DNA of 64,000 nt from a virus. Taxonomy: Duplodnaviria > Heunggongvirae > Uroviricota > Caudoviricetes. Numbering within the stretch: the stretch's first letter is position 1; every line of letters starts with the position of its first letter. The stretch is taken from positions 1-64,000 of the IMG/VR virus record IMGVR_UViG_3300021387_001267; one strand, given 5' to 3'. A program made the translations under genes and the position numbers. The notes under the pieces were generated by a model. It was not told where the DNA came from, did not search any database, and worked only from the letters and a program-made list of their open reading frames with translations. Shown here in pieces: positions 4,108-52,004 of the stretch.

Positions 4108-4467
4108 TCATTCGGATTTGTTCTCTTCTGTTTCTTCTTCGGGATTCTGTTCAGGTTCTGCAGTCTCGGTTTCTTCTGCAGGTTCTCCAGCCTCATCTTC
4201 CTCGTATGCAACCTTGTAATTTTTGCAGAGATGCACAAAAGCTTTTCCATTTCCGACCATACGGCTGCCGAGTGCTGTTACGCCAACGATCTTGAATCCG
4301 TTTTTCATGTTGGAATTCAGGATCTGTTTGACACACAACGCATCGACAGCAATCGCACCGACCGACATAGCTCTTGCGGTCTGCAAGGATGCATTCGCGA
4401 TCCAATACTTTGGTGCTGACGAAGTAATGCGTTTTCCGCTGACGTGTAGAATATAATACTTTCCCAT
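4108..4467 (-). CDS. hypothetical protein with acidic C-terminal tail
   Basis: ORF track; start moved to MGKYYIL with AAAGGAGAAT SD. Confidence 0.5.
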   Translation of the reverse strand: MGKYYILHVSGKRITSSAPKYWIANASLQTARAMSVGAIAVDALCVKQILNSNMKNGFKIVGVTALGSRMVGNGKAFVHLCKNYKVAYEEDEAGEPAEETETAEPEQNPEEETEENKSE

Positions 4468-4601
4468 AATAGATTCTCCTTTCAATTTTTCCAAAAGATT
4501 CTTTTACTTACTATAGTCTCCATAATAGACCTTGCAGATTTTGTGAGAGGCCGAATGAAAAGAGAAGGGCCGTCGTAAAACAGCCCTTTGAATTCGATAG
4601 G

Positions 4602-4754
4602 TTAACTTTTTCCTTTTCCGGCTTTTGACATTGCCAATATCAATCCGAATACTGCTCCCATTGGTCCTGCCGCCCAGAAGCCTAATCCGCAAAAGATTGC
4701 AACAGTCAATACCTGTACCAAATATCCCTTATCGAATCCATTATTGTTTTCCAT
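4602..4754 (-). CDS. small membrane protein (50 aa)
   Basis: ORF track 4602..4793; start moved to MENNNG with AGAGGAGG SD; two hydrophobic segments. Confidence 0.45.
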   Translation of the reverse strand: MENNNGFDKGYLVQVLTVAIFCGLGFWAAGPMGAVFGLILAMSKAGKGKS

Positions 4755-4831
4755 AAACAGCCTCCTCTTATAATAGATTGACGTCTCTTTCAACGTCTCT
4801 ATTATAAGAGATGCAGAATCTGTGATCTGCC

Positions 4832-5224
4832 CTATTCGATCTCATTAAAATTCTCTTCTTCCCAGAATTCTCGTTTGAGCGGTTTCATTCTAAGCGCCCA
4901 CATGATTTTTCGCAGCGGAACCGTAAAATATAATTGATCCTCATCTGCACATGTTGCAAATGCTTCGAAATATTCTTTAAAGCGCTCGTTCTCCAGAATA
5001 TCATTTGCGATCCATGGGTCAATCGATCCCCACCAGATCGACTTTGTGGCCTCATTAAAATGCTGCTGGACAACCGCCAATCCGATCTCCTCGCCGTCCT
5101 CATTCCAGCCAGTAAATAACGTGCAGCGATTATACATCGGATGATTGCAGCGATAAACTTTTACGCGGTCTTTTTTCAGGTTCAGATTCTCCAAATCTTC
5201 CGGAGCTTTGTAATAATACTTCAT
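4832..5224 (-). CDS. hypothetical protein
   Basis: ORF track 130 aa; weak GAGGAA SD. Confidence 0.45.
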   Translation of the reverse strand: MKYYYKAPEDLENLNLKKDRVKVYRCNHPMYNRCTLFTGWNEDGEEIGLAVVQQHFNEATKSIWWGSIDPWIANDILENERFKEYFEAFATCADEDQLYFTVPLRKIMWALRMKPLKREFWEEENFNEIE

Positions 5225-5290
5225 GTAATATCAATTCCTCAAAAACGAAAAGCAGAGCAACTGCAACGAGTCACTCTGCTTCCGGGAAGG

Positions 5291-5476
5291 TTATTTTTTA
5301 GAAACCCACTTAATATCCATTCTCTGTTTGGTAACGAGACCATACAGTTCAAAGCATACAACATAGAACCAGAATGTGGCGCCGGACCCAATTAAAAAGC
5401 CTTCAATTCCGGCTTTCGCAAAGAGCTTGATGTCATCCCAATTTGCATTCACCTTGTCCTTAATTTTCTTCAGCAT
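5291..5476 (-). CDS. small membrane protein (61 aa)
   Basis: ORF track 5291..5599; start moved to MLKKIKDKV preceded by GGAGGT SD; one TM (FWFYVVCFELYGLV). Confidence 0.45.
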   Translation of the reverse strand: MLKKIKDKVNANWDDIKLFAKAGIEGFLIGSGATFWFYVVCFELYGLVTKQRMDIKWVSKK

Positions 5477-5595
5477 AGTCAATACCTCCATATAATTAGA
5501 TTTAGAATTCATAGATTCCTTCCCAATATATGGATTGTAATTTTTGTGAGAAAAAGAGAGCAGCTGTATGCCGCTCCCCTTTTGAGATGATTCCT

Positions 5596-6003
5596 TCACC
5601 GTTTTTTCGTCTTCAGATATCCCGATGCCACCTGATAAATTGACTTGATCGCATAGGAGACTTTGTCACCATTATATGCAATCCAGCAGAACGCTCCGGC
5701 TTTTCCCGCATCAATCAGACTGTCAGCAAGCCCCGCACCGATCTTCATCTTCTCAACCTTCAGTCTTTGCTGCTCAACTTCAACTTTCCGGTTCTCGACC
5801 TCAACCTTCATGCGGTTGATGTCATTGACCTCGTTATTGTTGAGTCTCGCATTGTCCTCTTTGATTGCCGCGATTTTCATATCGTGCAGAATCTTTGCGT
5901 TTTCCACGATGTATTTGTAGTCGTCATGTTCCGCTTTGGTCTGCCCAAGTTTGTCCAACAATTCATCCTGTCTCTTTTCAATTTTTTCAATGATGTCGTC
6001 CAT
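5596..6003 (-). CDS. hypothetical coiled-coil protein
   Basis: ORF track 135 aa; AAGGAGGT SD; heptad-rich KVEVE repeats. Confidence 0.5.
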   Translation of the reverse strand: MDDIIEKIEKRQDELLDKLGQTKAEHDDYKYIVENAKILHDMKIAAIKEDNARLNNNEVNDINRMKVEVENRKVEVEQQRLKVEKMKIGAGLADSLIDAGKAGAFCWIAYNGDKVSYAIKSIYQVASGYLKTKKR

Positions 6004-8219: not shown

Positions 8220-8783
8220 CTAATCATGAAGATCAACAATACAAGCATAGTAATCTTGACTATTTTTAATTGTACTTTTGATAAGTTCATCAAAATTTTC
8301 ATTTTTTGTAAGATGCTTACCATCCCAATGTTCCCGCGCGTATCCGTTACCGTCTATATCAATAAAACAATAACAGTTAATCAGATCGTCGACATTAATG
8401 ATATCTGAAATCTTTGCGCCATCAACATAAAGAAATCCATCTCTAAAGCCAAGAGATGGAAAAAAGGTTTCTTCTATACCGGCAAAACTATAAAATCCAT
8501 GTTTAACGTCATTTGCTATTAATTCTTCAAGAAGATATGAACGAAACAATCTTCCAGCTCTAGGATTGGCGATATAGTAGCCCCATTCATATTTATCTGA
8601 ATTCTTTTTGGTGGACAGCTTAAGCAGTCCGTTATATCTTCCACCGAGTCCATACCAGTCCCATAAGAATGCAGGATATTTACATGGCCTTGTTTCATCA
8701 TCTTCGCAAAATGGACTTAACATCTTACTTATAACAGCATCAGATGGAAATTCTTTTGAAAAAATAACACAACAATAATGCAT
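8220..8783 (-). CDS. hypothetical protein
   Basis: ORF track 187 aa; 1-nt overlap with upstream gene. Confidence 0.5.
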   Translation of the reverse strand: MHYCCVIFSKEFPSDAVISKMLSPFCEDDETRPCKYPAFLWDWYGLGGRYNGLLKLSTKKNSDKYEWGYYIANPRAGRLFRSYLLEELIANDVKHGFYSFAGIEETFFPSLGFRDGFLYVDGAKISDIINVDDLINCYCFIDIDGNGYAREHWDGKHLTKNENFDELIKSTIKNSQDYYACIVDLHD

Positions 8784-9634
8784 TAACTATTCTCCTTCAA
8801 ATACTTCTTAAATTTATTCTCATCTCCGACCGAAATATCATTCTCGAAATCCAGTCCAAACTCCTCAGCTTTTTCGAGAATAGCCTCTGCCAGCTCCTTC
8901 TCATACTTCGGATCGACATAGTTAAAGAATCTGATAGCAGATTTCACGTGCTTCTTGTCCGGCATAGGAAATTTTTTGATCTCAGGAATGCCGTAGAGGC
9001 CTTCATCGGAGTCTTCTGTGTCAGAATGCTCCAAATTCAGCTGATCCATTTTCTGTTCGACCCAGAACCTGCGATACTGTCCCTCAATCTCTGAAATATC
9101 ACGTCCACGAACTGTTTCCTGCATAATGAGCACGTCCCAGATCTTTTCCAGGACTCGCTCCAGAATCATTCGGCTATTCAGATTAATATACTGCTTATCT
9201 CGGTGCTCGGCATACCAATTAAATATCTCAAAGAGATTTCCAGACTTCCAGCTAAACGACCACCAGTCGGCAATCATTTCGAAAATATAAGGCAGTGGGA
9301 TCATGAGAGTCTTATACGGTAGCCCGGCTTCAGGATCATCTTCCATCAGCACCCAATATTGCCAGTGATGCGGATTCTGATGAATGTGATGCAGCCAGGC
9401 ATAGTTAAAGTCCTGTACTACTTTGTAACTACGATTCCCGCCATAGAAATATCTGTCATATGCATCGTACTCCTCGGTCGAATACTTACTCTCATCATGA
9501 TTAAATGACACCATGGCGGTTTCAATTGCAGACTTTTCTTCCTGACTGAGTGCCAGATTATCCAGCATCCAGTGAAGTCCCTTATTTACATTACCGATAT
9601 GCTCGGCCAGATACTGATCGTATGCATAGCTCAT
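8783..9634 (-). CDS. hypothetical protein (His/Trp-rich WLHHIHQNPHHWQYW block)
   Basis: ORF track 283 aa; SD GAGGAAAAC; overlaps neighbours by 1-4 nt. Confidence 0.5.
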   Translation of the reverse strand: MSYAYDQYLAEHIGNVNKGLHWMLDNLALSQEEKSAIETAMVSFNHDESKYSTEEYDAYDRYFYGGNRSYKVVQDFNYAWLHHIHQNPHHWQYWVLMEDDPEAGLPYKTLMIPLPYIFEMIADWWSFSWKSGNLFEIFNWYAEHRDKQYINLNSRMILERVLEKIWDVLIMQETVRGRDISEIEGQYRRFWVEQKMDQLNLEHSDTEDSDEGLYGIPEIKKFPMPDKKHVKSAIRFFNYVDPKYEKELAEAILEKAEEFGLDFENDISVGDENKFKKYLKENS

Positions 9635-15214: not shown

Positions 15215-15754
15215 TTAATTAGTTTTCTCCTGCTTTTCTTTTGACTCAATCATCCAGCCAAGATAAACCTGAGCTTTCTTTAGATCTTCGAGTCCATTCT
15301 TTTCTCTGAATCTCCAGACATACTTCATGACGTTCCCTTTGCAATACCCCTGAAATTCCTCAGGAGTCATGCTGGCTTCAATGGCCTTGATACACTCGAT
15401 TCCGCCCTGGCAATAATGAGATGGATGCATAACAGTATCGGATTTGGTCGTTTCTTTCTCATTTTGTTTCTTAAACGTATCCTGTGACATGAAAAAGACA
15501 CACGATTCACCGCCGTTTCGTACACAGGACTTGTCCCAAGCCGAACATAATTTATTAGCGCATTTCCAATTGAACAAATAAAGACAAATGTCATTCGTCA
15601 TCGGATCGTCGAGCTTATTCACATCTGCATGAAATCTACAAAATGTCTGCTCATTCAGCAATAGATTATCCGCCTCAATACATCTTTTATTAAATGTTTC
15701 CGGACTTTTATTATTCATGCAAACAGAGTTATTATCGAAAATGCACCAACTCAT
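15215..15754 (-). CDS. DUF3310-like phage protein with N-terminal Cys-rich region
   Basis: ORF track 179 aa. The C-terminal HYCQGGIECIKAIEASMTPEEFQGYCKGNVMKYVWRF stretch matches the DUF3310 signature (H-Y..G.IE..D.I......F..GN..KY..R) as I recall it. Confidence 0.5.
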   Translation of the reverse strand: MSWCIFDNNSVCMNNKSPETFNKRCIEADNLLLNEQTFCRFHADVNKLDDPMTNDICLYLFNWKCANKLCSAWDKSCVRNGGESCVFFMSQDTFKKQNEKETTKSDTVMHPSHYCQGGIECIKAIEASMTPEEFQGYCKGNVMKYVWRFREKNGLEDLKKAQVYLGWMIESKEKQEKTN

Positions 15755-15781: not shown

Positions 15782-16399
15782 TCAAACCATTCGGAATGAA
15801 TGGTCCCGAGAAATATCAGTACTTTCTTCCACCATGGGAACATCCAGGCGAGCTTCTTCCACTCCAGCCATCTGTTCCAGCGGTGAATCAGTTTCTTCAT
15901 CGTCGCATCCCTCCCTTTTTCGAATTTTTAAAATATAATCACGAAGGTCATAATTGATTTCATCTGGGCAGTGGACAAGCAAACCTGTTTTAAAGCAATG
16001 ATCCAGTTTCTTATCCCAGTCTTCTATCGCGCCTTTAAAAGCGCGAAGATCTTTTTCATTTTCACTGTTTAAATATCGGTTGACGAGTCTTATTGCCCAG
16101 GCTTTTTTCATGTCATACCTTGGACAAAATATAACAATCGGCACGTCTTTATAATGGGTTACTTTAAAACGATCAAAACAATCTATTACTGCCGCATGAG
16201 TAGAGGTCATGACTGTGTAGCCCTGTAATGCCAAATAGTATGCAAGATTGCAGTATTCTCTGACCCAATTATCGTCAGACTTCATGCACGAATCCTCATA
16301 GTGCGAAAACAGGCTACTCTCCAGATCAATGCAGTTATTCCATCCAGCAATTGAACTCTTTCCAATTCCAGGATATCCGCAAACAATAAGCCCTTTCAT
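15782..16399 (-). CDS. P-loop NTPase, probable (deoxy)nucleotide kinase-like
   Basis: ORF track 205 aa; Walker A GYPGIGKSS at residues 8-16; small size fits a kinase-type P-loop protein. Confidence 0.55.
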   Translation of the reverse strand: MKGLIVCGYPGIGKSSIAGWNNCIDLESSLFSHYEDSCMKSDDNWVREYCNLAYYLALQGYTVMTSTHAAVIDCFDRFKVTHYKDVPIVIFCPRYDMKKAWAIRLVNRYLNSENEKDLRAFKGAIEDWDKKLDHCFKTGLLVHCPDEINYDLRDYILKIRKREGCDDEETDSPLEQMAGVEEARLDVPMVEESTDISRDHSFRMV

Positions 16400-20811: not shown

Positions 20812-21810
20812 TTAATTTTCGGCTGCGCTGACGCTTCCGAGATCAAGAATATAATCATTCCCATCTCCAAGAACCGTTGTCGGAAGTTTGCCATCCCACT
20901 GTTTAATCCAGTAATAGTCAATAACATTTCCATTAAGAGATTCGCCGATTCGTTTATTCATTTCGGCTTCCTTTTCACCGGCGTAGAGTGCGGCCTCTGC
21001 CTGAACCTTTACAACTTCGAGATCCGCATTTGCCGCAATAACTGCCTTTTCAGCCTCTGCATTTGCCGCAATAATCGCTCGCTTCGCCGTCTGCTCTTCT
21101 TCCATCGTCTTCTGGGCCTGCTCAGTTTCAGCCTTCAGCTTATTCTGAGCTGCCACCTGCTTGGCCTCAACAGCGTTTGTAAATGTATCAGTAAAGTCAA
21201 TATCACGAATGGCAATGGATACAACATTAATTCCATAACGACTCATATCGGCTGCAACACTTTCGGTTACCTTTTGTGAGAGAATATCACGGTTTCCGAT
21301 TAAGCTTTCAGCAGTATACTTCGCAAAAATTGTCTTAATATTATCCTGAATGGGTCCGAACATAACAGTCTCATAGTAGTTTGTTCCGACGGTCTTATAA
21401 ATATCACGGGCCGCTGTCTGATCGATGCTGTAGTTAATTGTGACGGCGTAAGAGGCCTCCTGAAGATCGCTTGAGAACGCAGCCGATTCGAACTCCTGCT
21501 TCTGAATACGATTATCCATTTTCACAACTTCCTGCCAGGGGGCAATAACATTAATACCTGAACTGACAGTACGATCTTCAACTCTTCCAAATGTAGTCAG
21601 AATTCCGGTATACCCCGTAGGCACGACAGCAATACATGCAATAATGAATAAAATAACAGATACAGCGATTGCCACGAGAAGCGGCCAAGCGACAAATTTT
21701 GCGCGCTTCGGCTCACCGTTTTTATATTCGTCATATGTGGAATGCGCGATAGCAACGCCAAGTACAACGCCTGTAATAATAAGAATAATAGAAAATACAA
21801 TTGCGAACAT
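20812..21810 (-). CDS. SPFH/band-7 (stomatin/prohibitin-like) membrane protein
   Basis: ORF track 332 aa; two N-terminal TM helices then a GYTGILTTFGRV...VIAPWQEVVKMDNRIQ SPFH-type core and an Ala/Glu-rich coiled coil. Confidence 0.7.
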   Translation of the reverse strand: MFAIVFSIILIITGVVLGVAIAHSTYDEYKNGEPKRAKFVAWPLLVAIAVSVILFIIACIAVVPTGYTGILTTFGRVEDRTVSSGINVIAPWQEVVKMDNRIQKQEFESAAFSSDLQEASYAVTINYSIDQTAARDIYKTVGTNYYETVMFGPIQDNIKTIFAKYTAESLIGNRDILSQKVTESVAADMSRYGINVVSIAIRDIDFTDTFTNAVEAKQVAAQNKLKAETEQAQKTMEEEQTAKRAIIAANAEAEKAVIAANADLEVVKVQAEAALYAGEKEAEMNKRIGESLNGNVIDYYWIKQWDGKLPTTVLGDGNDYILDLGSVSAAEN

Positions 21811-22802: not shown

Positions 22803-22964
22803 TTATTTCCTTGTATCTTCGCCTCTGGCCTTTTTATCAAACCATTTTTCAATATCGACCACTCGAGTTCCCTTCGGCCAGCCAAAGAATTCCTCCTTGA
22901 TTCGTCCGGCAATGTCAGTCGGAACATCTTTAAGAAACTTTCGAACTTCATTGTAGTTTGTCAT
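22803..22964 (-). CDS. small hypothetical protein (53 aa)
   Basis: Not in track; ATG with GAGGAGGAGAAAAC SD; ATGA coupling to 22961..23494. Confidence 0.45.
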   Translation of the reverse strand: MTNYNEVRKFLKDVPTDIAGRIKEEFFGWPKGTRVVDIEKWFDKKARGEDTRK

Positions 22965-23494
22965 TTTGTTTTCTCCTCCTCAAGTCGGTTGACTTCTTCA
23001 CGTAGATACTCAATAACTGCTTGTGCCCGTTCTAAATAGTATCCGAGAGTTTCTAATTGCTTTTTAGACACTGGATATAATCCATCTTTTCCGCATGTAG
23101 ATGCCATCCTGAAGCAACCACCTTTCTCTGCATTAAGAGAATTACATAAATGGCTTTTAGACTCATCCGCATCTCGAATATATAATTTGTTTTTATAATA
23201 CTCTATCGAGTCTATAGAATCAGATCTCTCCATCGGCTCATAATTCTTTTCGAAAACATCTGGATTACAAGGATAAACTCTGCCATCTTCGAAGCCTTTA
23301 ATAATGTAATCTCCAATAGATACATGAGTTTTGCCGGCAGGTGTGTTTATAATCATACTGTAAGTTCCTTCGGAGACCTGGTAAATATCATGAACTGCTG
23401 TTCCCGCAAACGCCAGCATTTCGCTGACATTCTTACCAGTCCATTGAACAGCTTCTACTATAAATGGTTTATTACGATATTTCATGACATTCAT
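22961..23494 (-). CDS. hypothetical protein
   Basis: ORF track 177 aa; ATGA coupling upstream. Confidence 0.5.
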   Translation of the reverse strand: MNVMKYRNKPFIVEAVQWTGKNVSEMLAFAGTAVHDIYQVSEGTYSMIINTPAGKTHVSIGDYIIKGFEDGRVYPCNPDVFEKNYEPMERSDSIDSIEYYKNKLYIRDADESKSHLCNSLNAEKGGCFRMASTCGKDGLYPVSKKQLETLGYYLERAQAVIEYLREEVNRLEEEKTK

Positions 23495-23899: not shown

Positions 23900-24141
23900 T
23901 ATTCGTCCTCAAGTCCCATCAGTTTCACAACTCCATCGGGATATTTCTCATCAAACCAATGCCAAATATCCTCGCGATTAGTTCCTTTCGGCCACCAGAG
24001 AAATGACTCCTGAATGATCCCATCATCGTCCACCGGAATATCACCAAGCTCATTCCAGAATGTTTCAAGAGACTCCGGCGATACGAGTATGGCTCCGTCA
24101 GGTTTAATTACTTTCATTTCTGATTGTACAAATTCCGCCAT
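23899..24141 (-). CDS. hypothetical acidic protein
   Basis: ORF track 80 aa. Confidence 0.45.
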   Translation of the reverse strand: MAEFVQSEMKVIKPDGAILVSPESLETFWNELGDIPVDDDGIIQESFLWWPKGTNREDIWHWFDEKYPDGVVKLMGLEDE

Positions 24142-24446
24142 TAAGTTTCCTCCATTTCAAGAATCTTATAGTTATCAGGAGTTCCGGAAACACGCACTGA
24201 GCTTATGTCAACGAACCCGACTAGTTCTATATCTTTTTGACCTTCCCACCAGTCAGACTCAAAGACCCAGTGAGGATCGGTCCAGTCTGGATCACCAGTT
24301 TCGTAGATCAAGTATTCAACGCAAAGCTCTCCGTTTATTCGCAAGGTAACTAAAAAATTGCTATAGTAATGTTCCTGGCACCATTCTTCAATTTCATCTG
24401 CAATAATATCATATGGTGTTTTAGATATTGATCCGAAATTAGCCAT
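24141..24446 (-). CDS. hypothetical protein (ends ...KILEMEET)
   Basis: ORF track 101 aa; GGAGGAAACTTA-ATG junction repeated at 24446. Confidence 0.5.
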   Translation of the reverse strand: MANFGSISKTPYDIIADEIEEWCQEHYYSNFLVTLRINGELCVEYLIYETGDPDWTDPHWVFESDWWEGQKDIELVGFVDISSVRVSGTPDNYKILEMEET

Positions 24447-24823
24447 TAAGTTTCCTCCATCGTAATAAATTCATATTGTGGAGCCTCGCCATCGAGCAAA
24501 TATAACGCATATCGAAGGCCATTACGAAAACCGACCATATACTCATCTGTTCCATTTGATGATTCGATCGCGAACTCAATTTTTGAATATAAACTGATCG
24601 GGTCGACAATTGATTCGGCAGTCTTTTCATCAGTAATTTCCAATTTGATGCCAAGAGCTTTGAGTATTTTCAGCGCTGCTTTTGTAGATCCTTTGCGCTT
24701 TCCGGTCTCAAGACGGCACACGGTAGCTGCCGAAGTATCTGACAGTTCGGCAAGCTCTCTACATGAAAGTCCTTTACGAATTCGTTCTGTGTGAATAACG
24801 CTTCCGATTTCTTCTACTGTCAT
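24446..24823 (-). CDS. XRE-family HTH transcriptional regulator with C-terminal domain
   Basis: ORF track 125 aa; N-terminal 40 aa (KGLSCRELAELSDTSAATVCRLETGK) fit an HTH_3 motif; ends ...EFITMEET. Confidence 0.6.
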   Translation of the reverse strand: MTVEEIGSVIHTERIRKGLSCRELAELSDTSAATVCRLETGKRKGSTKAALKILKALGIKLEITDEKTAESIVDPISLYSKIEFAIESSNGTDEYMVGFRNGLRYALYLLDGEAPQYEFITMEET

Positions 24824-24872: not shown

Positions 24873-25202
24873 TTACTTTTCTAATTCTTTAAGATGGTCA
24901 CAGAACTTTTGAAATTCTGCCTTGCGCTCGGATAGCGTTTGAAAATTCCATGTCGCTGGATAATCTATTCCTCCATCTTCTCCTTCTAAAAAATACCAGT
25001 CAGGTTCTCCTCGAAAATAATTATCAGCAATTTCGATTCGACCTTCATATGTATGACCTATGGCAAAATACTCAGAAAGGAGCTTAAACTCATTTTCATT
25101 ATGAATATAAGCTCCTTCGACTTGAAACTCTGACCCATATACAATCAGATTTTTCTTGACAAGATTGTCTAATTTTAGAAAATAATCAAAATGTGTCATC
25201 AA
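24873..25202 (-). CDS. hypothetical protein
   Basis: ORF track 109 aa; GGAGAAGGAGGAC SD. Confidence 0.5.
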   Translation of the reverse strand: MMTHFDYFLKLDNLVKKNLIVYGSEFQVEGAYIHNENEFKLLSEYFAIGHTYEGRIEIADNYFRGEPDWYFLEGEDGGIDYPATWNFQTLSERKAEFQKFCDHLKELEK

Positions 25203-25274
25203 TTGTCCTCCTTCTCCTGTTTTTTTTAATCAGGCAATTTGTATTGTACAAATTCCGCCATTAAGTTTCCTTCT

Positions 25275-25802
25275 TTAAACCTTACTCCATACCAGCCCAG
25301 GCGAAGAATTTTGTTCTCGGATCATGCTTTTATGATCTTCACATTCACGAATCGCTTCTTTACTTCGTTGCTCAAGCTTCTCTTTTAATTCTTCAGTGAC
25401 ATTTTCTCTCTTTGTAGCTAAATATACGTCACAAAGCTTTTTGTCACCCCAATAATAATGTTTATAAGTTAGAACCTCGATTCCGAGATCGTCCAATAAG
25501 CTTAAATCCATTAAATCTTCTGTATACGGATGCCATTGAACACTGCGTACACCGCGTTCACAAAATTCAATAAGACTAATAATCTCAGAAGGAGTCAGTT
25601 CTTTACGCTTTATCAAGCACCGACGCCGTTCTTTATTTGGTTCTACAAATTCAATTTCTTCAAACTCAGTTTTTCGTCCTTTTACCATTCTTTTTCCAAT
25701 GATTTTAGTAATATTGCATTGCCCAATAATGGCCTCATGAGTAATGATGTAATTTCCACGATCGTCAACTTTAAACAGGTAGCCTTTCGTAGATTTTTTC
25801 AT
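25275..25802 (-). CDS. hypothetical protein
   Basis: ORF track 175 aa; AGGAGGAAAG SD. Confidence 0.5.
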   Translation of the reverse strand: MKKSTKGYLFKVDDRGNYIITHEAIIGQCNITKIIGKRMVKGRKTEFEEIEFVEPNKERRRCLIKRKELTPSEIISLIEFCERGVRSVQWHPYTEDLMDLSLLDDLGIEVLTYKHYYWGDKKLCDVYLATKRENVTEELKEKLEQRSKEAIRECEDHKSMIREQNSSPGLVWSKV

Positions 25803-26115
25803 TTACTTTCCTCCTGTTCAGCATATGAATGTCATGTTCATATTTAAAATGGTCCATTAGTTGTTCTTTACTCAAACCATATTGCTCAAATATCCAAAGA
25901 ATACTTTTTAATTGCTGCTTTGCGTGCTCTTTTTCGAGTTCATCGGAAGAAACCAGCGCTAATCGATCTTTATATTGTTTCCAGTTTTCGAGAAGAAATT
26001 TTACGTCGAGGATATGCATACAATTCAAAGGCCTAAGGCATGGCGAATTTCTGAGCCATAAAGCATAGTCCGGCATATTCGCAGGACATAGATCGCATTT
26101 GGTTATTTGATACAT
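25771..26115 (-). CDS. hypothetical Cys-containing protein
   Basis: ORF track 114 aa; overlaps downstream gene by 32 nt. Confidence 0.45.
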   Translation of the reverse strand: MYQITKCDLCPANMPDYALWLRNSPCLRPLNCMHILDVKFLLENWKQYKDRLALVSSDELEKEHAKQQLKSILWIFEQYGLSKEQLMDHFKYEHDIHMLNRRKVNEKIYERLPV

Positions 26116-26817
26116 TTACTCCTCCATCGTAATAAACTCCGAATAGGGCAAGCTACGGATCCAGTCACAATACTGATGCCACTCATCGAGCTTGTGGTTT
26201 TTCCTCTGCCGATATTGCGCCGCCAGAACTTCATAGTTCAGATCGATGGTCCTCTTCTGGTTATAGGAACTCGGAAGCAGCTGGATCATCTGGTACCAGT
26301 AGACTTTGTCTCTGGTTTTCAGAAAAGCTTCTCTTGCAGCGTTCATCATTTCAATCTGAATTTTCAGACTGTCATACGGTCTTAGTTTTCCATCTTCAAA
26401 ATCCTTCGAACTAATCCAAAGTTCGTGCGGCATATCTACTGCCGGAATCAAATGTTCACACGAAAAATCATCCAGCGTAAATTCCTTCGCCTGAATCTTA
26501 TGCATTGTGGAGCAGCTGTTCGAGACCGTTGCAATTTTGTAAGTTTCAAACTCTTTCCACCAATAAAGAGGCGCCGTCACATCCATTTGGACATGAACCA
26601 TGCGCCTCCATTTTGCTTCCTCGGTTCCTCCCTTGCAGAGATTCATGAGGAGTTTATGATCATTAGGGCCGATGTATGCCGATCCTCTGTGGCAAGACAT
26701 TCCTTCGTCATCGCACCAAAAATCAGTATCAGACTTTTCTCGACTGTTCATTGGATTTCTGCAGCCAAGTATAGCCATTCTCCATCCGAAAACTTCAGTA
26801 TTCTCGATTTTAATCAT
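26116..26817 (-). CDS. divergent ThyX-like (thymidylate synthase complementing protein fold) protein without canonical RHR motif
   Basis: ORF track 233 aa. Blocks VHVQMDVTAPLYWW and KIATVSNS resemble, from memory, the Thermotoga ThyX segments FHVKAPIFVARQW and RIASYNELS. The RHR-x7-S catalytic motif itself is absent. Confidence 0.35.
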   Translation of the reverse strand: MIKIENTEVFGWRMAILGCRNPMNSREKSDTDFWCDDEGMSCHRGSAYIGPNDHKLLMNLCKGGTEEAKWRRMVHVQMDVTAPLYWWKEFETYKIATVSNSCSTMHKIQAKEFTLDDFSCEHLIPAVDMPHELWISSKDFEDGKLRPYDSLKIQIEMMNAAREAFLKTRDKVYWYQMIQLLPSSYNQKRTIDLNYEVLAAQYRQRKNHKLDEWHQYCDWIRSLPYSEFITMEE

Positions 26818-27499
26818 CTATATGCCTCCAATTAATATTTTGAGCAGCGTCGCTTATCGTCGTTCTGTTAACACCAAATTTTCGAGCTAAAGCAGCGAAA
26901 CCAAATTCACGATCGTTCTTTTTATATACTTGACGAATATAATGGACATCGTTTTCAGTTAATTTATGAATTGGGTTGTTTTCGCCATGCATCGGAGATT
27001 CTAGCCCATAAGCAAATGCATGTTTTAAATTATCAGAACGTGTACACCACTCTAGGTTTTCAACACGATTATCGGTCTTGACTCCATTTATATGATTAAC
27101 TTGTTCGAGATTATTTTCATTCGGGATAAAACATTCTGCGATTATTCTATGAATATCTCGATTCTTTTTGTTGATAATGGTATGCCGGTATCCATCTCTG
27201 CCTATAGCGCCCTCCATCATATGCCCATGAAGGTTATAAATATTTCCAGATGGAAACGCGGCATAGTGATCTTCAACAATTTTTCCGTCCTCAAGATTGT
27301 CGCCATTAAGCTCGATGACATGCTTAAATCTATTTATTCGGTAATCATTTACTGCATTTTTAGCATCATCTTCACATTTATACGTGCCAAGATTTATACT
27401 TTTAGATTTCTCACTAACAAATGTTTCATATTTTTGATTTTCAGTTTGCCGATAGCTTTTTGCAGGAAGATTCTTTATTGCATCTTCAATTTCAGTCAT
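26810..27499 (-). CDS. HNH homing endonuclease (HNH + NUMOD-like C-terminal DNA-binding helix)
   Basis: ORF track 26810..27565; start moved to MTEIEDAI with AGGAGGAGGG SD; HNH-type stretch NLHGH...HINGVKTDNRVENLEWCTRSDN and C-terminal FGFAALARKFGVNRTTISD. Confidence 0.7.
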   Translation of the reverse strand: MTEIEDAIKNLPAKSYRQTENQKYETFVSEKSKSINLGTYKCEDDAKNAVNDYRINRFKHVIELNGDNLEDGKIVEDHYAAFPSGNIYNLHGHMMEGAIGRDGYRHTIINKKNRDIHRIIAECFIPNENNLEQVNHINGVKTDNRVENLEWCTRSDNLKHAFAYGLESPMHGENNPIHKLTENDVHYIRQVYKKNDREFGFAALARKFGVNRTTISDAAQNINWRHIDD

Positions 27500-27522
27500 T
27501 TCTGTCCCTCCTCCTAGCTTGC

Positions 27523-27705
27523 CTAGATGCCAGTTTCTCCTTTCTGAATTCGCGACAGGTAACAATCTTTACAAATCTCAGTCGTCCCTTGCAAATGAAT
27601 AATGTCCGCGACGTTGATTTCCGGGCGCGAACATTCAACGGTTAATACCACCTTGAACCAAACGCCCATTTCCTTTCCGCAAATATCGCACTTATGAATT
27701 ATCAT
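27523..27705 (-). CDS. zinc-ribbon protein
   Basis: ORF track 60 aa; CDICG...CKDC. Confidence 0.45.
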   Translation of the reverse strand: MIIHKCDICGKEMGVWFKVVLTVECSRPEINVADIIHLQGTTEICKDCYLSRIQKGETGI

Positions 27706-27866
27706 TCAGTTACCTCTTTCATCACACAAATATAACGAACCATTACTTCATCACGAAAAATACATTTATAGCATTCATTTGTGCAGGTACTGTTCGGATT
27801 TCTGCACTTAACCTTCGCCTGAGGTAATCCATAAACGCAATCTCGACAATTATTCGTGCAAGTCAA
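27702..27866 (-). CDS. Cys-rich mini-protein (TTG start), paralog of 28602..28784
   Basis: Not in track; TTG start with GGAGGGAGAG SD and TTGA overlap with upstream stop; LTCTNNCRDCVYGLPQAKVKCRNPNSTCTNECYKC aligns with MTCSNNCQHCAHGIPQSSFICLNRNSTCNGHCDKC. Confidence 0.4.
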   Translation of the reverse strand: MTCTNNCRDCVYGLPQAKVKCRNPNSTCTNECYKCIFRDEVMVRYICVMKEVTE

Positions 27867-28123
27867 TAGTACTCTCCCTCCGCCCTGAGAAGTTCAGCAT
27901 CTAGTTCCATCTCAGGATTTCTGACATACATTCTTTCATCCGGCGCCATTTCTCTGGCTTTCATCAGAAGTTCTTTACCGATAAAACCTTCCATTGTTTT
28001 ATCATTAATGGTATACAAGGTTACAGGAGGAGTGCATACATTATCATAAACAATAAACTCCTTCTTGGCCCAACTCATTTCGTCGTGATCATACTCATCT
28101 TCAGTAATTACAAATGGTTTCAT
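27863..28123 (-). CDS. hypothetical acidic protein
   Basis: ORF track 86 aa. Confidence 0.5.
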   Translation of the reverse strand: MKPFVITEDEYDHDEMSWAKKEFIVYDNVCTPPVTLYTINDKTMEGFIGKELLMKAREMAPDERMYVRNPEMELDAELLRAEGEYY

Positions 28124-28137
28124 TTAGTTTCTCCTTT

Positions 28138-28335
28138 TCAAATATAATCCTTACAGATTCGGCAATCTACACCAATTGCATCTACTATTGCCACCATACT
28201 CTCTGGAAAAGTTCTTCCATCTCGAAAATCATTCCATGAGATAACGTCCATATAATAACCGGTAACGAGGTCGCATGGATAGGATTTAATGAAATCGACA
28301 AATTCATCTCGACTTACTTTCTGCCAGTTTTTCAT
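28138..28335 (-). CDS. hypothetical protein
   Basis: ORF track 28138..28425; start moved to MKNWQKV with GGAAGGGAGA SD. Confidence 0.45.
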   Translation of the reverse strand: MKNWQKVSRDEFVDFIKSYPCDLVTGYYMDVISWNDFRDGRTFPESMVAIVDAIGVDCRICKDYI

Positions 28336-28336
28336 A

Positions 28337-28609
28337 TTAATCTCCCTTCCAAAGCATAGGACTTCCGTCAGGATTGAGCAGTACAGTAAAATTACCAGTG
28401 TTATATGTTCCACAAGATACAGCATACATGACTTTAGTATCTCGATGATATACGATTCGATATGAGTCCATACCGCTTCCTTCGACGATAATAAACATCG
28501 ATACTGGCTTTTGTGGCTTTTCGTCTACTCGCTCAATTGGCGTACCGCAGCCAATTAGAAAGAACGCAAATATCACGCAGAGTAATGCACAAATGATTCG
28601 TTTAATCAA
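28337..28609 (-). CDS. lipoprotein (signal peptide plus lipobox LIGC)
   Basis: ORF track 90 aa; MIKRIICALLCVIFAFFLIGCGTP is a Sec/SPII-type signal with a lipobox; candidate superinfection-exclusion protein. Confidence 0.55.
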   Translation of the reverse strand: MIKRIICALLCVIFAFFLIGCGTPIERVDEKPQKPVSMFIIVEGSGMDSYRIVYHRDTKVMYAVSCGTYNTGNFTVLLNPDGSPMLWKGD

Positions 28610-28784
28610 TTGGTTCTCCTTTCCTATTTACCCAATCCAATGAACAAATATAACGAATCGACTCTACAGCACTATATGAACATTTATCACAATGCCCATT
28701 GCATGTAGAATTTCGATTTAGACATATAAACGACGATTGAGGTATCCCGTGTGCACAATGTTGACAGTTGTTCGAACAGGTCAT
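28602..28784 (-). CDS. Cys-rich mini-protein, paralog of 27702..27866
   Basis: ORF track 60 aa. Confidence 0.45.
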   Translation of the reverse strand: MTCSNNCQHCAHGIPQSSFICLNRNSTCNGHCDKCSYSAVESIRYICSLDWVNRKGEPID

Positions 28785-28824
28785 TCAATTTTCCTTTCAA
28801 AAATATAAATAGGCCGCTGATTAT

Positions 28825-29055
28825 TCAACGACCTCTTTCCTCGACATTAAAACGATAATGATCATATAGATCTTCGTACGGTTTTGCATTAGCTCTGAGA
28901 TGTTCATTCAAACGGTCTGCGAATATGTTAGCATCGCTTCGATTGCGAAATACTTTAACAATTTCACAAAGATTGCTGTGCCAGCCAATATCCTGTCCGT
29001 TGCTGTCCTCATCTCGATACCAATGCTTTTTGACTACTACGTATGCTTTCATCAT
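28825..29055 (-). CDS. hypothetical protein
   Basis: ORF track 76 aa; GGAGGCGAAAATG SD. Confidence 0.5.
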   Translation of the reverse strand: MMKAYVVVKKHWYRDEDSNGQDIGWHSNLCEIVKVFRNRSDANIFADRLNEHLRANAKPYEDLYDHYRFNVEERGR

Positions 29056-42909: not shown

Positions 42910-43962
42910 TCATCCATTATACAGTTTCTCCATTTTTTCGTCAATAATCTGCCCGAATTCGTCCTCCTTGTCTCTTAATGTATGCTGATAGACGTTCTGT
43001 AACATATTTTCGGTCTTATGCCCCATGCGCTTCATAGAGTACTTATTTGGAACTCCAAGTGCATGAGCTTCAGATGCAGCAAAATGTCGAAGATCATGGA
43101 ACCTGCATGGCTCAACTCCGGCTTTCTTACAGATGCTGACGAAATTCTTGTAGATCGTAATGTCAGCATATGGGCAAATATAATTTTTCGCGATTTCTTC
43201 TTTGGTCTTTCCAGTATCTTCTAGTTTCAGCCTCTCGACGATAATCAAATGTTGAATTGTTCCAGGACACTTAATCCAGCGATCGCCAGAAACTGTTTTC
43301 GTCCCCTTTTCAATGCTCTTCCCTTCCGAATCACGAACAACGGCCGTATGAATGTGGAGTTTACCTTCTTTCAGATCCTCAAACTTCAATCCACGAACCT
43401 CGCTCATTCTAAGACCCATCCAGGATCCGAGCAGAATCGAAAGCTCATATTTAGTACCCTTCACAGCGTTCCAGACTTTCTGCATTTCTTCTTCGGTAAA
43501 TATGCGCATTTCAGTCTGCTGCTTTTCTGGCAAATGAGTATGCGTAGAGAAGTTCGGTCTAAATTCTTCAAGAACAGCATTCAATAATCCATGAGCATTT
43601 CGAATTGTCTTCGGCGACTTTCCATTCAGTGCTTCGTTCGATACGGAAAGCTGAATATCACCCTGGGTCAGATCCGAAATATTAATGTCCATAAGATCCT
43701 GAAGATAGTTCTTTCGGACGGACTTATACCCACGAATTGTACTCGAAGACAGAACACCGGACTTTTCAGTTATATACTGATCCATAGCACGGCCCACGGT
43801 CATCGGAAGTCGTTTTTCCATTTCTGCCCCTGCGAAAATTTGCTTAGCCTTTTCCTGAGCTTCCTTCTTTGTAGCTCCGGTACAGGAATATCTGTGTCCA
43901 TCTATCTGGATTTGAATTCGCCAATTGCCAGATTTAAGTTTCGTAGCTTTAGGCAATTTCAT
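42910..43962 (-). CDS. int: tyrosine-type site-specific integrase
   Basis: ORF track 42910..44019; start moved to MKLPKATKL (AAAGGAGG SD; the first ATG abuts the SD). C-terminal catalytic stretch FHDLRHFAASEAHALGVPNKYSMKRMGHKTENMLQNVY carries the R..H..R...Y signature; N-terminal SAM-like core-binding domain. Confidence 0.85.
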   Translation of the reverse strand: MKLPKATKLKSGNWRIQIQIDGHRYSCTGATKKEAQEKAKQIFAGAEMEKRLPMTVGRAMDQYITEKSGVLSSSTIRGYKSVRKNYLQDLMDINISDLTQGDIQLSVSNEALNGKSPKTIRNAHGLLNAVLEEFRPNFSTHTHLPEKQQTEMRIFTEEEMQKVWNAVKGTKYELSILLGSWMGLRMSEVRGLKFEDLKEGKLHIHTAVVRDSEGKSIEKGTKTVSGDRWIKCPGTIQHLIIVERLKLEDTGKTKEEIAKNYICPYADITIYKNFVSICKKAGVEPCRFHDLRHFAASEAHALGVPNKYSMKRMGHKTENMLQNVYQHTLRDKEDEFGQIIDEKMEKLYNG

Positions 43963-44398
43963 TGCCATCCTCCTTTGTAACACGAATATTTGGATGAAAG
44001 TCGGGTCTATACTCGGCAAGAACTTTCAGAATAAAGGTTTTATAACCTTTCAGAGTTTTTACGCTAAGGCCTTTTGCGATTTCCGCATCGAAAGCCTGCT
44101 GAAGAAGCTCTTCAGTAAGTTTATCGAGCCAAATAAGCCACAGACAACTAAGATGATGGTCGATAATGTTCTCATAACCTTTAATTGTCGAAGTCTTGAG
44201 TTCCCCTCGTTTAGAGTCAATATACTTTACGGCTGCCTCCATAAAGCAAAGACGCTCCGGTTCTTCCATTTTGATTTCTTCTGATTGACCTTTAACAAGA
44301 TCTTTTGCCATTTCAAGTCGGTCGATCACTTCATATTTTCTCTTTTCAATCATAATCGTGACATGGTACTTGCAAATATTAAAGTTGCAGATTTTCAT
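43949..44398 (-). pseudogene. truncated paralog of the integrase N-terminal (core-binding) domain; integrase remnant or small accessory protein
   Basis: ORF track 149 aa; YIDSKRGELKTSTIKGYENIIDHHL...KGLSVKTLKGYKTFILKVLAEYRPDFHPN aligns with the integrase N-terminus YITEKSGVLSSSTIRGYKSVRKNYL...NGKSPKTIRNAHGLLNAVLEEFRPNFS; no catalytic domain. Confidence 0.5.
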
Positions 44399-50381: not shown

Positions 50382-52004
50382 TCATACTCGAAGCAACTCC
50401 TTCCAGGTACTCGGACCGATTTCACCATCAGGATCCAGACACTTTGCCTTCTGAAAATGCCGGATCTTCTCGTCCATTTCCTTCCCGAAAATCCCCGTCA
50501 CGACGATCGTATAGCCCCAGCACTGCAAAGCTGCCTGAGCGAGTTTAACATCGGGACCATCGTCTTCCATTTTGATTGTTCGAACCTGAAGATTCTTTCG
50601 TGGAATTGACGTATCCGGTTTAGCAGGTTCTGGTTCCGGTGTCGAGGTTGGTACTTCTTCTTTCGGAAGCTCCGTTGGCTCAGATTTCCAAAGAATCTCG
50701 TTCAGAACTTTTCTGGTGTCATCCCCGACTTCTCCGTCAACTGGCTCAAGTTTATGTTCTTGCTGGAACTTCATAACGGCTTTTTTCGTGTTATCGCCGT
50801 AATCTCCGTCGGCTTTGTCAGGTCCGACATCATAGCCCATTCGAATGAGATCTTCCTGAAGTTTCTTTACGTCGTCACCTTTGCAGCCGAGTTTTAGAAT
50901 TCGCTCGGAGCTCTCAGACGGACCAAAGGAAATATCACTCGGACTTGTATCTGCTGCGAGCTCCCATCTGGGTCTTCCGTATCCGGCAATTGTGGAACTT
51001 CCAACTGCATAGGACCGCCTTCCGACTGACTCGGATGTATTCCCCTCGATCGTGGTTACAACTCCGCCCGATACGGATTCGACAAGACCCGTATGGCTGT
51101 ACTCACCAGGAGCGTAACTGAAGAAAATCTGGTCGCCAGGTTCTGGATTGCCTGTAATCCATCGGCCATGTTGCTTATAGTACTGAACGGAAAACATGCA
51201 TCCAGCTCCGGCGCTGTTCAGAGGCTGACAGAGCATCTGACGCCCGAGTTCCGCTCCAAAGCATTTCACGAACAGCCAGTCGTAAAACACGTCGCACCAC
51301 ATGTAGCCATTCTTGGCTGTGTTATAAAAGTTTCTGAGTTTGTCGAGATCTCTGGCGTACTTTGTCCAGTTTCCGACTCCGGCATTCGCTGTTTTATCAT
51401 CAAGCTGCGAATTAGATGCCTTTTCGCGATAGCCGACTTCCGATCTCGCCAAGTTCAGGACGAGATCAATTGCTTCCTGTTTTGTCATACTGCTCGTCCT
51501 TTCAATATCGAGATTATGAAATCGTTCATAAAATTCTTCGGCGGATTTCAAACGGCGCGGTTTCTGCTTGTCCTTGTCTTGCGGATTTTCCCATTTGTCC
51601 AGAAGCTGCCAGCTGCACTCGGCCAGATCATGACTGCTCGTAACGAGTCTCCACTGGATCGAGAAATCATGCTGCATTTCCCAGATGAGGAAATCAATCT
51701 GTGTATCTGAGTCTCCGATCGACTTGCCTCTTGCCCTATGGAAATCGTACATAAGTCCTTTACGGTCAGGAAAAGTCCACTGGGCATAACCGTAGCCGAC
51801 TCCGTCATACATAAACTGGTGCTTTGAAATAATTCCGTTGTCAACCTGCCTCGTATAAATGGCATCGACAATCTTTTTGGAATCTTCCGCATTGGTAGAT
51901 TGAAAGACGCCCTCGTGCTGAATCTGACCGAGAACAGCACAGGCGCCTTCAACCGTCATACCGGCTTTCCGAAATCGCCGGTACATATGTTCCTGGATGG
52001 TCAT
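50382..52004 (-). CDS. multidomain peptidoglycan hydrolase (lysin): tail-lysozyme-like N-domain + CHAP + 2x PG_binding_1
   Basis: ORF track 540 aa. N-terminal GMTVEGACAVLGQIQHEGVF...YGYAQWTFPDRK. CHAP Cys/His pair at WCDVFYDW and SHTGLVESV. Two GDYGDNTKKAV-type PG-binding repeats at the C-terminus. Confidence 0.8.
   Translation of the reverse strand: MTIQEHMYRRFRKAGMTVEGACAVLGQIQHEGVFQSTNAEDSKKIVDAIYTRQVDNGIISKHQFMYDGVGYGYAQWTFPDRKGLMYDFHRARGKSIGDSDTQIDFLIWEMQHDFSIQWRLVTSSHDLAECSWQLLDKWENPQDKDKQKPRRLKSAEEFYERFHNLDIERTSSMTKQEAIDLVLNLARSEVGYREKASNSQLDDKTANAGVGNWTKYARDLDKLRNFYNTAKNGYMWCDVFYDWLFVKCFGAELGRQMLCQPLNSAGAGCMFSVQYYKQHGRWITGNPEPGDQIFFSYAPGEYSHTGLVESVSGGVVTTIEGNTSESVGRRSYAVGSSTIAGYGRPRWELAADTSPSDISFGPSESSERILKLGCKGDDVKKLQEDLIRMGYDVGPDKADGDYGDNTKKAVMKFQQEHKLEPVDGEVGDDTRKVLNEILWKSEPTELPKEEVPTSTPEPEPAKPDTSIPRKNLQVRTIKMEDDGPDVKLAQAALQCWGYTIVVTGIFGKEMDEKIRHFQKAKCLDPDGEIGPSTWKELLRV

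Follow-up and report, generated by a model that had tools for sequence, protein, structure and literature searches.

The window studied here is a 64,000-nt stretch of a virus genome of the Caudoviricetes (IMG/VR record IMGVR_UViG_3300021387_001267, positions 1 to 64,000), in which a gene for a 233-amino-acid (aa) protein resembling the flavin-dependent thymidylate synthase ThyX is overlapped at its 5' end by a gene for a putative HNH homing endonuclease (Table 1). All genes of the window lie on the minus strand. The coordinates that an initial annotation, made from the sequence alone, had given for the pair proved correct, as did its 8-nt overlap. We consider a longer TTG start at 27565 for the upstream gene unlikely, because its ATG at 27499 is preceded by a strong Shine-Dalgarno site, AGGAGGAGGG. 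The 233-aa open reading frame (ORF) is not a chance ORF, since we detected at least 8,000 homologues in a 90%-identity protein collection and at least 3,492 representatives of 50%-identity clusters (E ≤ 1e-3).

Table 1 Features of the two-gene locus and of the remainder of the window.
Feature	Position	Strand	Remarks
DUF5662 gene	8783..9634		
DUF3310 gene	15215..15754		
Walker-A protein gene	15782..16399		
SPFH/Band_7 (prohibitin-like) protein gene	20812..21810	-	
MazG-like protein gene	22961..23494		PHROG level only
ThyX-fold protein gene (predicted fold), 233 aa	26116..26817	-	PHROG 6721 family; without a Pfam or NCBIfam model
Codons R205-K-N-H208-K209-L-D-E212-W213	26179..26205	-	equivalent to ThyX R174...H178...E182
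Variable surface loop, ~residues 124-146	26380..26448	-	length-variable alignment columns; place of HNH insertion in other members
Codons S101-C102-S103-T104-M105-H106, family signature S-x-S-x-M-H	26500..26517	-	at the ThyX E86-x-S88-x-R90-Y91 substrate loop
Codons T92-Y93-K94	26536..26544	-	at the position of ThyX R78-H79-R80, by hhalign and DSSP register
8-nt overlap ATGATTAA	26810..26817	-	start codon (ATG) of the 233-aa ORF together with the stop codon (TAA) of the HNH ORF; 3' junction of the putative HNH insertion
Putative free-standing HNH_3 homing-endonuclease gene, 229 aa, ATG start	26810..27499	-	with sub-threshold C-terminal helix-turn-helix
GGAGG ribosome-binding site of the ThyX-like gene	26825..26829	-	overlaps the final HNH codons; 7 nt ahead of the ATG
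AGGAGGAGGG, ribosome-binding site of the HNH gene	27506..27515	-	6 nt before ATG 27499
60-aa Cys-rich zinc-ribbon-like ORF	27523..27705	-	part of the block travelling with the HNH and ThyX-like genes
Two paralogous small Cys-rich ORFs	27702..27866 and 28602..28784	-	MTC(T/S)NNC..C..G(L/I)PQ...C.N.NSTC...C.KC
Tyrosine integrase gene	42910..44019	-	PHROG 1, E 1.6e-53; Pfam Phage_integrase
Large multidomain endolysin gene	50382..52004		

Sequence comparison places the 233-aa protein in no characterised family. Neither Pfam (E ≤ 1) nor NCBIfam (E ≤ 0.01) returned Thy1, thyX or any other match, and the Protein Data Bank (PDB) gave no match either to the sequence in phmmer or to a profile of 52 family sequences in hmmsearch. 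The sole family match was to PHROG 6721, of "unknown function", and a megablast search with 25000..29000 against cultured phages found no match. An AlphaFold2 model computed from an alignment of 52 diverse homologues scored highly, with a predicted local distance difference test (pLDDT) of 92.5 and a predicted template-modelling score (pTM) of 0.87. When this model was compared with the PDB using Foldseek, the top 50 listed matches were all ThyX or PolB, with a best E of 6e-8 and 150 matches at E ≤ 0.001; in a viral structure library, its nearest neighbours were uncharacterised gut-phage proteins, followed by phage ThyX. The initial annotation had staked its ThyX-like reading on structure prediction, and it is there that the reading is borne out, with Foldseek recovering ThyX from the model though sequence models detect nothing in the window protein.

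Some relatives stand closer to ThyX. One of them (P0269) exceeds the Pfam Thy1 gathering score (29.3 against 24.8 bits), a second of the 70 long homologues matches Thy1 at E ≤ 0.001, and weak Thy1 matches occur in 4 of the 52 family members, among which no other family recurs. On the NCBIfam thyX model TIGR02170, with its cut-off of 87.9 bits, P0269 as the most ThyX-like member reaches 15.9 bits. A distant branch typified by phages phiCD211 and Fnu1 retains GH(D/E) and RQxxR, aligned with G52-H53-E54 and R74-Q75-x-x-R78, both invariant in ThyX, and hhalign joins the phiCD211 subfamily to the window family with a probability of 99.8%, making them one family.

Residues were mapped onto Thermotoga maritima ThyX, in a sequence 100% identical to PDB 1kq4/1o26. 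The resulting hhalign alignment is collinear, running from window residues 4–222 to ThyX residues 11–192. Probabilities were only 0.7–2%, whether the family profile was compared with a single ThyX or with a profile of 32 canonical ThyX sequences, or the phiCD211 profile with ThyX, and these alignments were used for residue mapping only, after their register had been checked against the secondary structure of both models; the global mode of hhalign gave a nonsense alignment, which was discarded. DSSP assignments of the AlphaFold2 models place window strands 75–83 and 185–194 at ThyX strands 61–69 and 154–163, and helix 195–205 at helix 164–174, with window helix 84–93 against ThyX helix 70–77 in the region of the catalytic motif. 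Judged by its modelled structure, the 233-aa protein has the ThyX fold and is a diverged ThyX homologue.

The ThyX motif R-H-R-x7-S-x-R-Y, required for activity in mutagenesis studies, is invariant in 32 of the 32 canonical sequences aligned. In the window protein it reads TYK-x8-S-x-MH, with the Ser alone kept. The loss of RHR had already been noticed in the initial annotation, and indeed T92-Y93-K94 falls within the stretch quoted there, KEFETYKIATVSNS. Elsewhere in the site, hhalign maps Q75, E86, S88 and R90-Y91 of ThyX to E89, S101, S103 and M105-H106 of the window protein, R147, N163 and R165 to Q179, N194 and E196, and R174, H178 and E182 to R205, H208 and E212. We take the kept equivalents of S88, N163, R174 and H178 to be residues that surround the uracil and isoalloxazine in ThyX, and among those lost, RHR and R165 presumably hold the flavin phosphates and R90 and R147 the phosphate of deoxyuridine monophosphate (dUMP). 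Distant family members read RYH at the TYK position and retain the equivalents of R74-Q75-x-x-R78. Its fold and ancestry put the protein in the ThyX superfamily, yet we do not class it as ThyX, because the motif and the arginines that bind phosphate and flavin are missing and the ThyX sequence model does not recognise it.

The residues found in place of the ThyX ones are themselves conserved. T92, Y93 and K94 are present in 96%, 98% and 90% of the family, and the signature S-x-S-x-M-H is kept at 96–99% across 136 sequences (S101 99%, S103, M105 97%, H106 96%) and in five of five distant cultured-phage members. R205 and H208 are conserved in 97–98% of the same 136 sequences, and these two together with K209 occur in all five distant members. 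Ten positions (W87, Y93, S101, S103, M105, H106, P182, R205, H208 and K209) are essentially invariant across the 136 sequences, which include the five distant ones. Conservation of at least 90% in the family is found at 31 of 58 ThyX-invariant positions, compared with 37 of 175 elsewhere (odds ratio 4.3, Fisher p 5.5e-6), yet the ThyX residue itself is kept at only 19 of those 58. Since the same positions are constrained but carry new residues, the pattern suggests a change of function rather than loss, and an active site that has been rebuilt would fit better than one that has decayed. Of the two options offered in the initial annotation, a divergent or a non-catalytic protein, divergence is thus the better fit, also in view of the genomic context and domain fusions described below.

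The family is carried by many phages and has remained unnamed. For 120 listed homologues from the 90%-identity collection no Pfam domain is on record, and the cultured carriers, all of them phages of strict anaerobes, have the gene annotated as "hypothetical protein" throughout. These carriers are Enterocloster phages PMBT24 and CB457P1 to CB473P3, Clostridium phage phiCTP1, Desulfovibrio phage ProddE, C. difficile phage phiCD211 and its relatives, Fusobacterium phage Fnu1 and a C. perfringens phage. A scan of reference genomes yielded only two loci, both in metagenome-assembled genomes (Blautia and Ruminococcus), from which a host can be suggested only loosely. Literature searches on ThyX-like proteins, phage ThyX, DUF3310/DUF1599, NMAD1 and anti-defence returned no description of the family. 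None of the PADLOC defence models matched it, and a defence or anti-defence label is unsupported.

ORFs within 6 kb of the ThyX-like gene were called and clustered in 80 viral contigs, and neighbour clusters apart from that of the polymerase were scanned with Pfam through their representatives. Recurrent neighbours are a helicase (44 of 80 loci; a weak sub-threshold Helicase_C match, SNF2-like by eye), a DUF5662 protein (30 loci; upstream, at a median of ~0.7 kb), a HAD-like (by eye) and Tad3-domain protein (26 loci), a PD-(D/E)XK nuclease (25 loci), MazG pyrophosphatase (21 loci; ~1 kb downstream), an N6 DNA methyltransferase (21 loci), a PolB-like polymerase (16 loci; read from a sequence motif rather than scanned), and NrdD and NrdG (14 loci each). 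The H...HD...H...D pattern of DUF5662 looks like that of an HD phosphohydrolase. Fusions are found among the 70 longer homologues, to DUF3310 (two cases), to DUF1599, the 'nucleotide modification associated domain 1' (NMAD1; one case), and to DUF1653 (one case); the conserved core of DUF3310 is annotated as a nucleotide kinase by PHROGs. Together, the context and the domain fusions point to a role in nucleotide metabolism.

In the complete genome of the T7-like phage ProddE, the ThyX-like gene is flanked on one side by those for DNA polymerase and exonuclease; on its other side are genes for MazG-type pyrophosphatase, P-loop kinase and NrdD/NrdG. NrdD accompanies the ThyX-like protein in the complete genomes of both ProddE and phiCTP1, in which neither annotation nor a six-frame search with hidden Markov models (HMMs) found ThyA or ThyX, the ThyX model being built from Thermotogae-type sequences only. 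Within the window, a Pfam scan of 129 ORFs found no Thy1, ThyA, dUTPase or ribonucleotide reductase domain, and a six-frame ThyA/ThyX search found no canonical thymidylate synthase. Only one ThyA-family gene lies within 6 kb of the 80 viral loci, and it resembles a (d)CMP hydroxymethylase rather than a thymidylate synthase. This gene (L065 4180-4983) lies 1 kb upstream of the ThyX-like gene and has CMP 5-hydroxymethylase as its best match (PDB 5b6d, E 1.7e-29), which hints at a hydroxymethyl-cytosine pathway beside the ThyX-like protein at that locus. Closer to hand, the DUF3310-like gene of the window named in the initial annotation was confirmed (E 1.3e-22); of the P-loop kinase listed with it, the P-loop stands, as a Walker A motif GYPGIGKSS at the start of the protein, and the kinase is unsupported, since no kinase model matched.

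The Tad3-domain protein, of ~347 aa, lies ~1.1 kb upstream of the ThyX-like gene (loci within L013-L092, e.g. L078 3559-4602) and combines an N-terminal HAD-like DxDGT motif, recognised by eye, with Pfam Tad3, a type I Thoeris inhibitor (E 3.5e-28), so that anti-defence and nucleotide-metabolism genes are interleaved in the module. The window and the unrelated phage ProddE (L093 15478-16368) each have an SPFH/Band_7 gene at a distance of a few kb from the ThyX-like gene.

The product of the gene upstream of the ThyX-like gene matches Pfam HNH_3 above the cut-off (E 2.8e-10, residues 116–158), PHROG 59 'HNH endonuclease' (E 3.9e-38) and the PADLOC 'homing endonuclease' model (E 6e-11), and its translation shows HRIIAECF...VNHINGVKTDNRVENLEW...N..H. 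Its C-terminus matches helix-turn-helix models, namely HTH_38 of Pfam at a sub-threshold E of 0.023 and PHROG 517 at E 7e-8. The initial designation as an HNH/NUMOD endonuclease holds for its first half; no NUMOD model matched the window protein, and NUMOD4 was found only in related in-frame insertions, discussed below.

The pair of HNH and 233-aa genes was found in three independent samples, with the HNH gene at the same junction in the window, in L007-L009 and in L010. The L010 locus encodes a ThyX-like protein 79% identical and an HNH protein 95% identical to those of the window, with the same 8-nt overlap and unrelated flanks. The block common to the two runs from 27709 to 26122 and holds the 60-aa zinc-ribbon-like ORF, the HNH gene and the ThyX-like gene; beyond it, the sequences are unrelated. 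In bins of 60 nt, identity is 82–100% from 27709 to ~26451, drops to 28–42% at the variable loop (low-identity block 26362..26450) and is 62–87% over the rest of the gene. The same small Cys-rich ORF precedes the HNH gene in L010, L007 and L008. Two further small Cys-rich ORFs, paralogous to one another, flank the region in the window, and a homologue of these is placed differently in the relative L001, indicating local gene shuffling around the ThyX-like gene.

An endonuclease-free allele, which the initial annotation had proposed looking for in related phages, was found in two close relatives (L001 and L012), where the breakpoint coincides with the start codon. Alleles with the HNH gene read GATGATTAAAATC (MIKI...), in which ...GAT GAT TAA overlaps ATG ATT AAA, and those without it read ATGAGCATTAAAATC or ATGAGTATTAAAATC (MSIKI...), starting ATG AGC/AGT ATT AAA; the HNH-less L001-type allele carries ATGAGCATTAAAATCGAG. 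Comparison of the MSIK and MIK starts places the junction of the HNH insertion inside codons 1–2. Over its first 90 nt, the ThyX-like gene is 100% identical in the two HNH-bearing alleles and 90–93% identical to the HNH-less L001, a pattern compatible with co-conversion, though a weak indication of it. An HNH gene occurs nearby in only 1 of 80 more distant loci, and such sporadic presence is the pattern that would be expected of a homing endonuclease gene. The reading of the upstream gene as a mobile, free-standing HNH homing endonuclease is thus supported by its HNH_3 domain, by the 95%-identical copy at the same junction within unrelated flanks, by the HNH-less relatives and by in-frame HNH modules in four other family members.

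These four members (P0130, P0240, P0260 and P0263) carry a complete HNH_3 and helix-turn-helix module, in three cases also with NUMOD4, in-frame in the variable surface loop. The insertions align to window positions 26380..26448, and the modules share the architecture of the window HNH protein, aligning with its residues ~85–225. Since the P0130 allele (L097 3001-4221) is identical on at least 24 contigs, one of 143.9 kb, it appears to be stably maintained. An intein or a group I intron was considered for these insertions and rejected, as the ORFs are continuous, with ~10 residues before the ThyX-like sequence resumes; inspection by eye, rather than with an intein model, revealed no intein boundary residues, and there is no room for an intron RNA. 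At the L097 locus, a dense patch of mobile elements, the ThyX-like gene moreover lies between an RRXRR-HNH gene and an IS605 OrfB/TnpB-like gene (1181-2389 and 4369-5622). The ThyX-like family is a repeated landing site for HNH homing endonucleases, used in two modes, of which the apparently intein-free in-frame insertion, stably kept in a widely sampled phage, is of interest for mobile-element biology.

Bringing these observations together, we lean slightly towards a reading in which the 233-aa protein is a neofunctionalised ThyX paralogue, a pyrimidine-nucleotide binder in deoxynucleotide supply, with an HNH homing endonuclease gene inserted at its start codon. The protein keeps the complete ThyX fold together with the side of the pocket where ThyX holds uracil (equivalents of Ser88, Asn163, Arg174 and His178), and the residues holding flavin and nucleotide phosphate have been replaced (RHR by TYK, Arg90-Tyr91 by Met-His, Arg147 by Gln, Arg165 by Glu) by others that are almost invariant across the family. 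A pyrimidine nucleoside monophosphate may still be bound in the ancestral pocket, and the protein would act as an enzyme of a phage deoxynucleotide-supply module comprising NrdD/NrdG, then a MazG- or HD-type hydrolase, the ThyX-like protein and a deoxynucleoside monophosphate kinase, with a chemistry or cofactor use unlike that of canonical ThyX. Judging from the fusions to a nucleotide-kinase core, its product could be a nucleoside monophosphate passed on for phosphorylation. The HNH gene, inserted at the start codon of this conserved gene, supplies a ribosome-binding site and a new ATG, and would spread together with the 5' end of the ThyX-like gene.

Several observations weigh against this assignment. 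Profile-profile statistics against ThyX are weak (hhalign 1–2%), and the residue mapping rests on collinearity of the fold and on secondary-structure register. Both arginines that would bind the dUMP phosphate (Arg90 and Arg147) are replaced, so the ligand could be no nucleoside monophosphate at all. The ThyX-like gene of the window sits amid small ORFs of unknown function, with nucleotide-related genes 3–17 kb distant, and the neighbourhoods elsewhere hold non-metabolic genes too, such as those for the Tad3-domain proteins at 26 of 80 loci. Finally, the absence of ThyA and ThyX covers two complete genomes, and was established with the Thermotogae-type ThyX model.

A bolder proposal, doubtful though worth stating, is that the family represents a new pyrimidine-nucleotide enzyme on the ThyX scaffold, either a thymidylate synthase without the canonical flavin site or a maker of a C5-modified or otherwise altered (deoxy)pyrimidine nucleotide, replacing ThyA/ThyX downstream of anaerobic ribonucleotide reductase in thousands of phages of strictly anaerobic Firmicutes, Fusobacteria and Desulfovibrio.

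The main alternative to a neofunctionalised, metabolically active paralogue, and in our judgement an unlikely one, is a non-catalytic ThyX-fold protein, serving as a nucleotide sensor or sponge, or as a subunit assembling into the tetramer of the host ThyX, which it would inhibit or redirect. The loss of the canonical catalytic and cofactor residues would be explained at once, and, because active sites in the ThyX tetramer are formed by three monomers (PMC3498832), a degenerate subunit could poison a hetero-oligomer; the frequent anti-defence neighbours with a Tad3 domain would also suit such a role. However, the replaced positions are among the most conserved of the protein (T92, Y93, S101, M105 and H106), and ThyX-invariant positions are enriched among the constrained ones, even if proteins that merely bind a ligand may be highly conserved too. 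The fusions to nucleotide-kinase-type and NMAD1 domains suggest instead a metabolic product that is handed on, and PADLOC contains no relatives of the family.

We regard it as distinctly improbable that the protein is a working thymidylate synthase converting dUMP to dTMP in phages of anaerobes, with flavin and substrate bound through other residues. The ThyX-like gene shares its modules with NrdD/NrdG, a MazG-type NTP pyrophosphatase and kinases, a pathway that needs such an enzyme, and in ProddE and phiCTP1 the protein fills the slot left by the missing ThyA or ThyX. The uracil-side residues (Arg174, His178, Ser88 and Asn163 equivalents) are kept, the conserved R20, K69, R72, K88, K94, R162 and K209 could take over phosphate binding, and the L065 gene adjoins one resembling (d)CMP hydroxymethylase, an arrangement paralleled in T4, where td sits with gene 42. 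Against this stands the loss of RHR-x7-S-x-RY, with R78, H79, R90, Y91, R147 and R165 all replaced, and the failure of the NCBIfam thyX model, which the window protein does not match and on which its most ThyX-like relative falls far short. As the RHR motif has been lost, and mutagenesis studies are reported to have identified a required ThyX motif (PMC2386288), canonical flavin-dependent thymidylate synthesis is unlikely.

Action on uracil or thymine as part of DNA or RNA instead of on free nucleotides, which the loss of both phosphate-clamping arginines, the kept base-contacting residues and the neighbouring DNA methyltransferases, nucleases and recombination genes would allow, is very improbable, given that no nucleic-acid-binding domain or fusion was seen, that the existing fusions are to nucleotide-metabolism domains, and that we know of no ThyX-fold protein acting on polymers.

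Further features of the window concern the phage as a whole. Several successive genes on the minus strand (24141..24823, 26116..26130) end in ...(I/L)(T/E)MEE(T), their last codons embedding a GGAGG site and the start of the next gene, a compact translational-coupling layout through this part of the window. A tyrosine integrase suggests a temperate phage. The Pfam scan of 129 ORFs also revealed RadC, three DUF6353, two DUF6273 and two BspA-type leucine-rich-repeat proteins, and a large multidomain endolysin is encoded as well.

ThyX has been viewed as standing apart structurally, with only one reaction and PolB as its sole known neofunctionalised paralogue (PMC3498832, PMC5954106). The proteins described here are a second branch of the fold, much larger than expected and specific to phages, with a rebuilt yet strongly constrained active site, which no sequence library names. 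Should the protein prove to be an enzyme, it would fill an unexplained step in the supply or alteration of DNA precursors by phages of gut anaerobes, and might reveal flavin-independent or novel pyrimidine chemistry; culturable carriers such as Enterocloster phage PMBT24, Clostridium phage phiCTP1 and Desulfovibrio phage ProddE make the question directly testable.

Compared with ThyX itself (Pfam Thy1, PF02511; T. maritima TM0449, PDB 1o26; Helicobacter pylori, PDB 3ah5), the window protein has a collinear secondary structure, keeps the equivalents of R28, D41, P69, S88, P151, N163, R174, H178 and E182, and likewise belongs to a family found in phage DNA-metabolism modules. Unlike ThyX, it has TYK for RHR, M-H for R90-Y91, Q for R147, E for R165, E for Q75 and S for E86, as well as a loop of variable length and, at the N-terminus, an additional conserved motif, GMRNPMNSWDKSDS, and it is invisible to the sequence models of Pfam, NCBIfam and the PDB. 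Flavin binding and thymidylate synthesis by the window protein are doubtful.

The closest precedent is PolB of Streptomyces cacaoi polyoxin biosynthesis (PDB 4p5a/4p5b), a ThyX paralogue that acts as a C5-methylase on UMP/dUMP and shows that such paralogues can take on new roles (PMC5954106). PolB is reached by a sequence query with T. maritima ThyX (4p5a, E 3.7e-34), whereas no sequence match links the window protein to any ThyX or PolB chain in the PDB. PolB carries out a ThyX-type methylation (PMC5954106), and the RHR motif is gone from the window family; PolB is also bacterial and belongs to an antibiotic gene cluster, unlike the phage family described here.

The putative endonuclease, for its part, resembles the free-standing HNH endonucleases of phages in its HNH_3 core and C-terminal helix-turn-helix, in its intergenic position abutting a conserved DNA-metabolism gene, and in its presence or absence among close relatives. 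The Mob genes of T4, which we take to be free-standing HNH endonuclease genes beside nucleotide-metabolism genes such as nrdA/nrdB, offer a parallel. In contrast to those systems, the insertion in the window replaces the start codon of its target and supplies the ribosome-binding site of that gene, and related modules also lie in-frame inside the ThyX-like family itself, without intein motifs.

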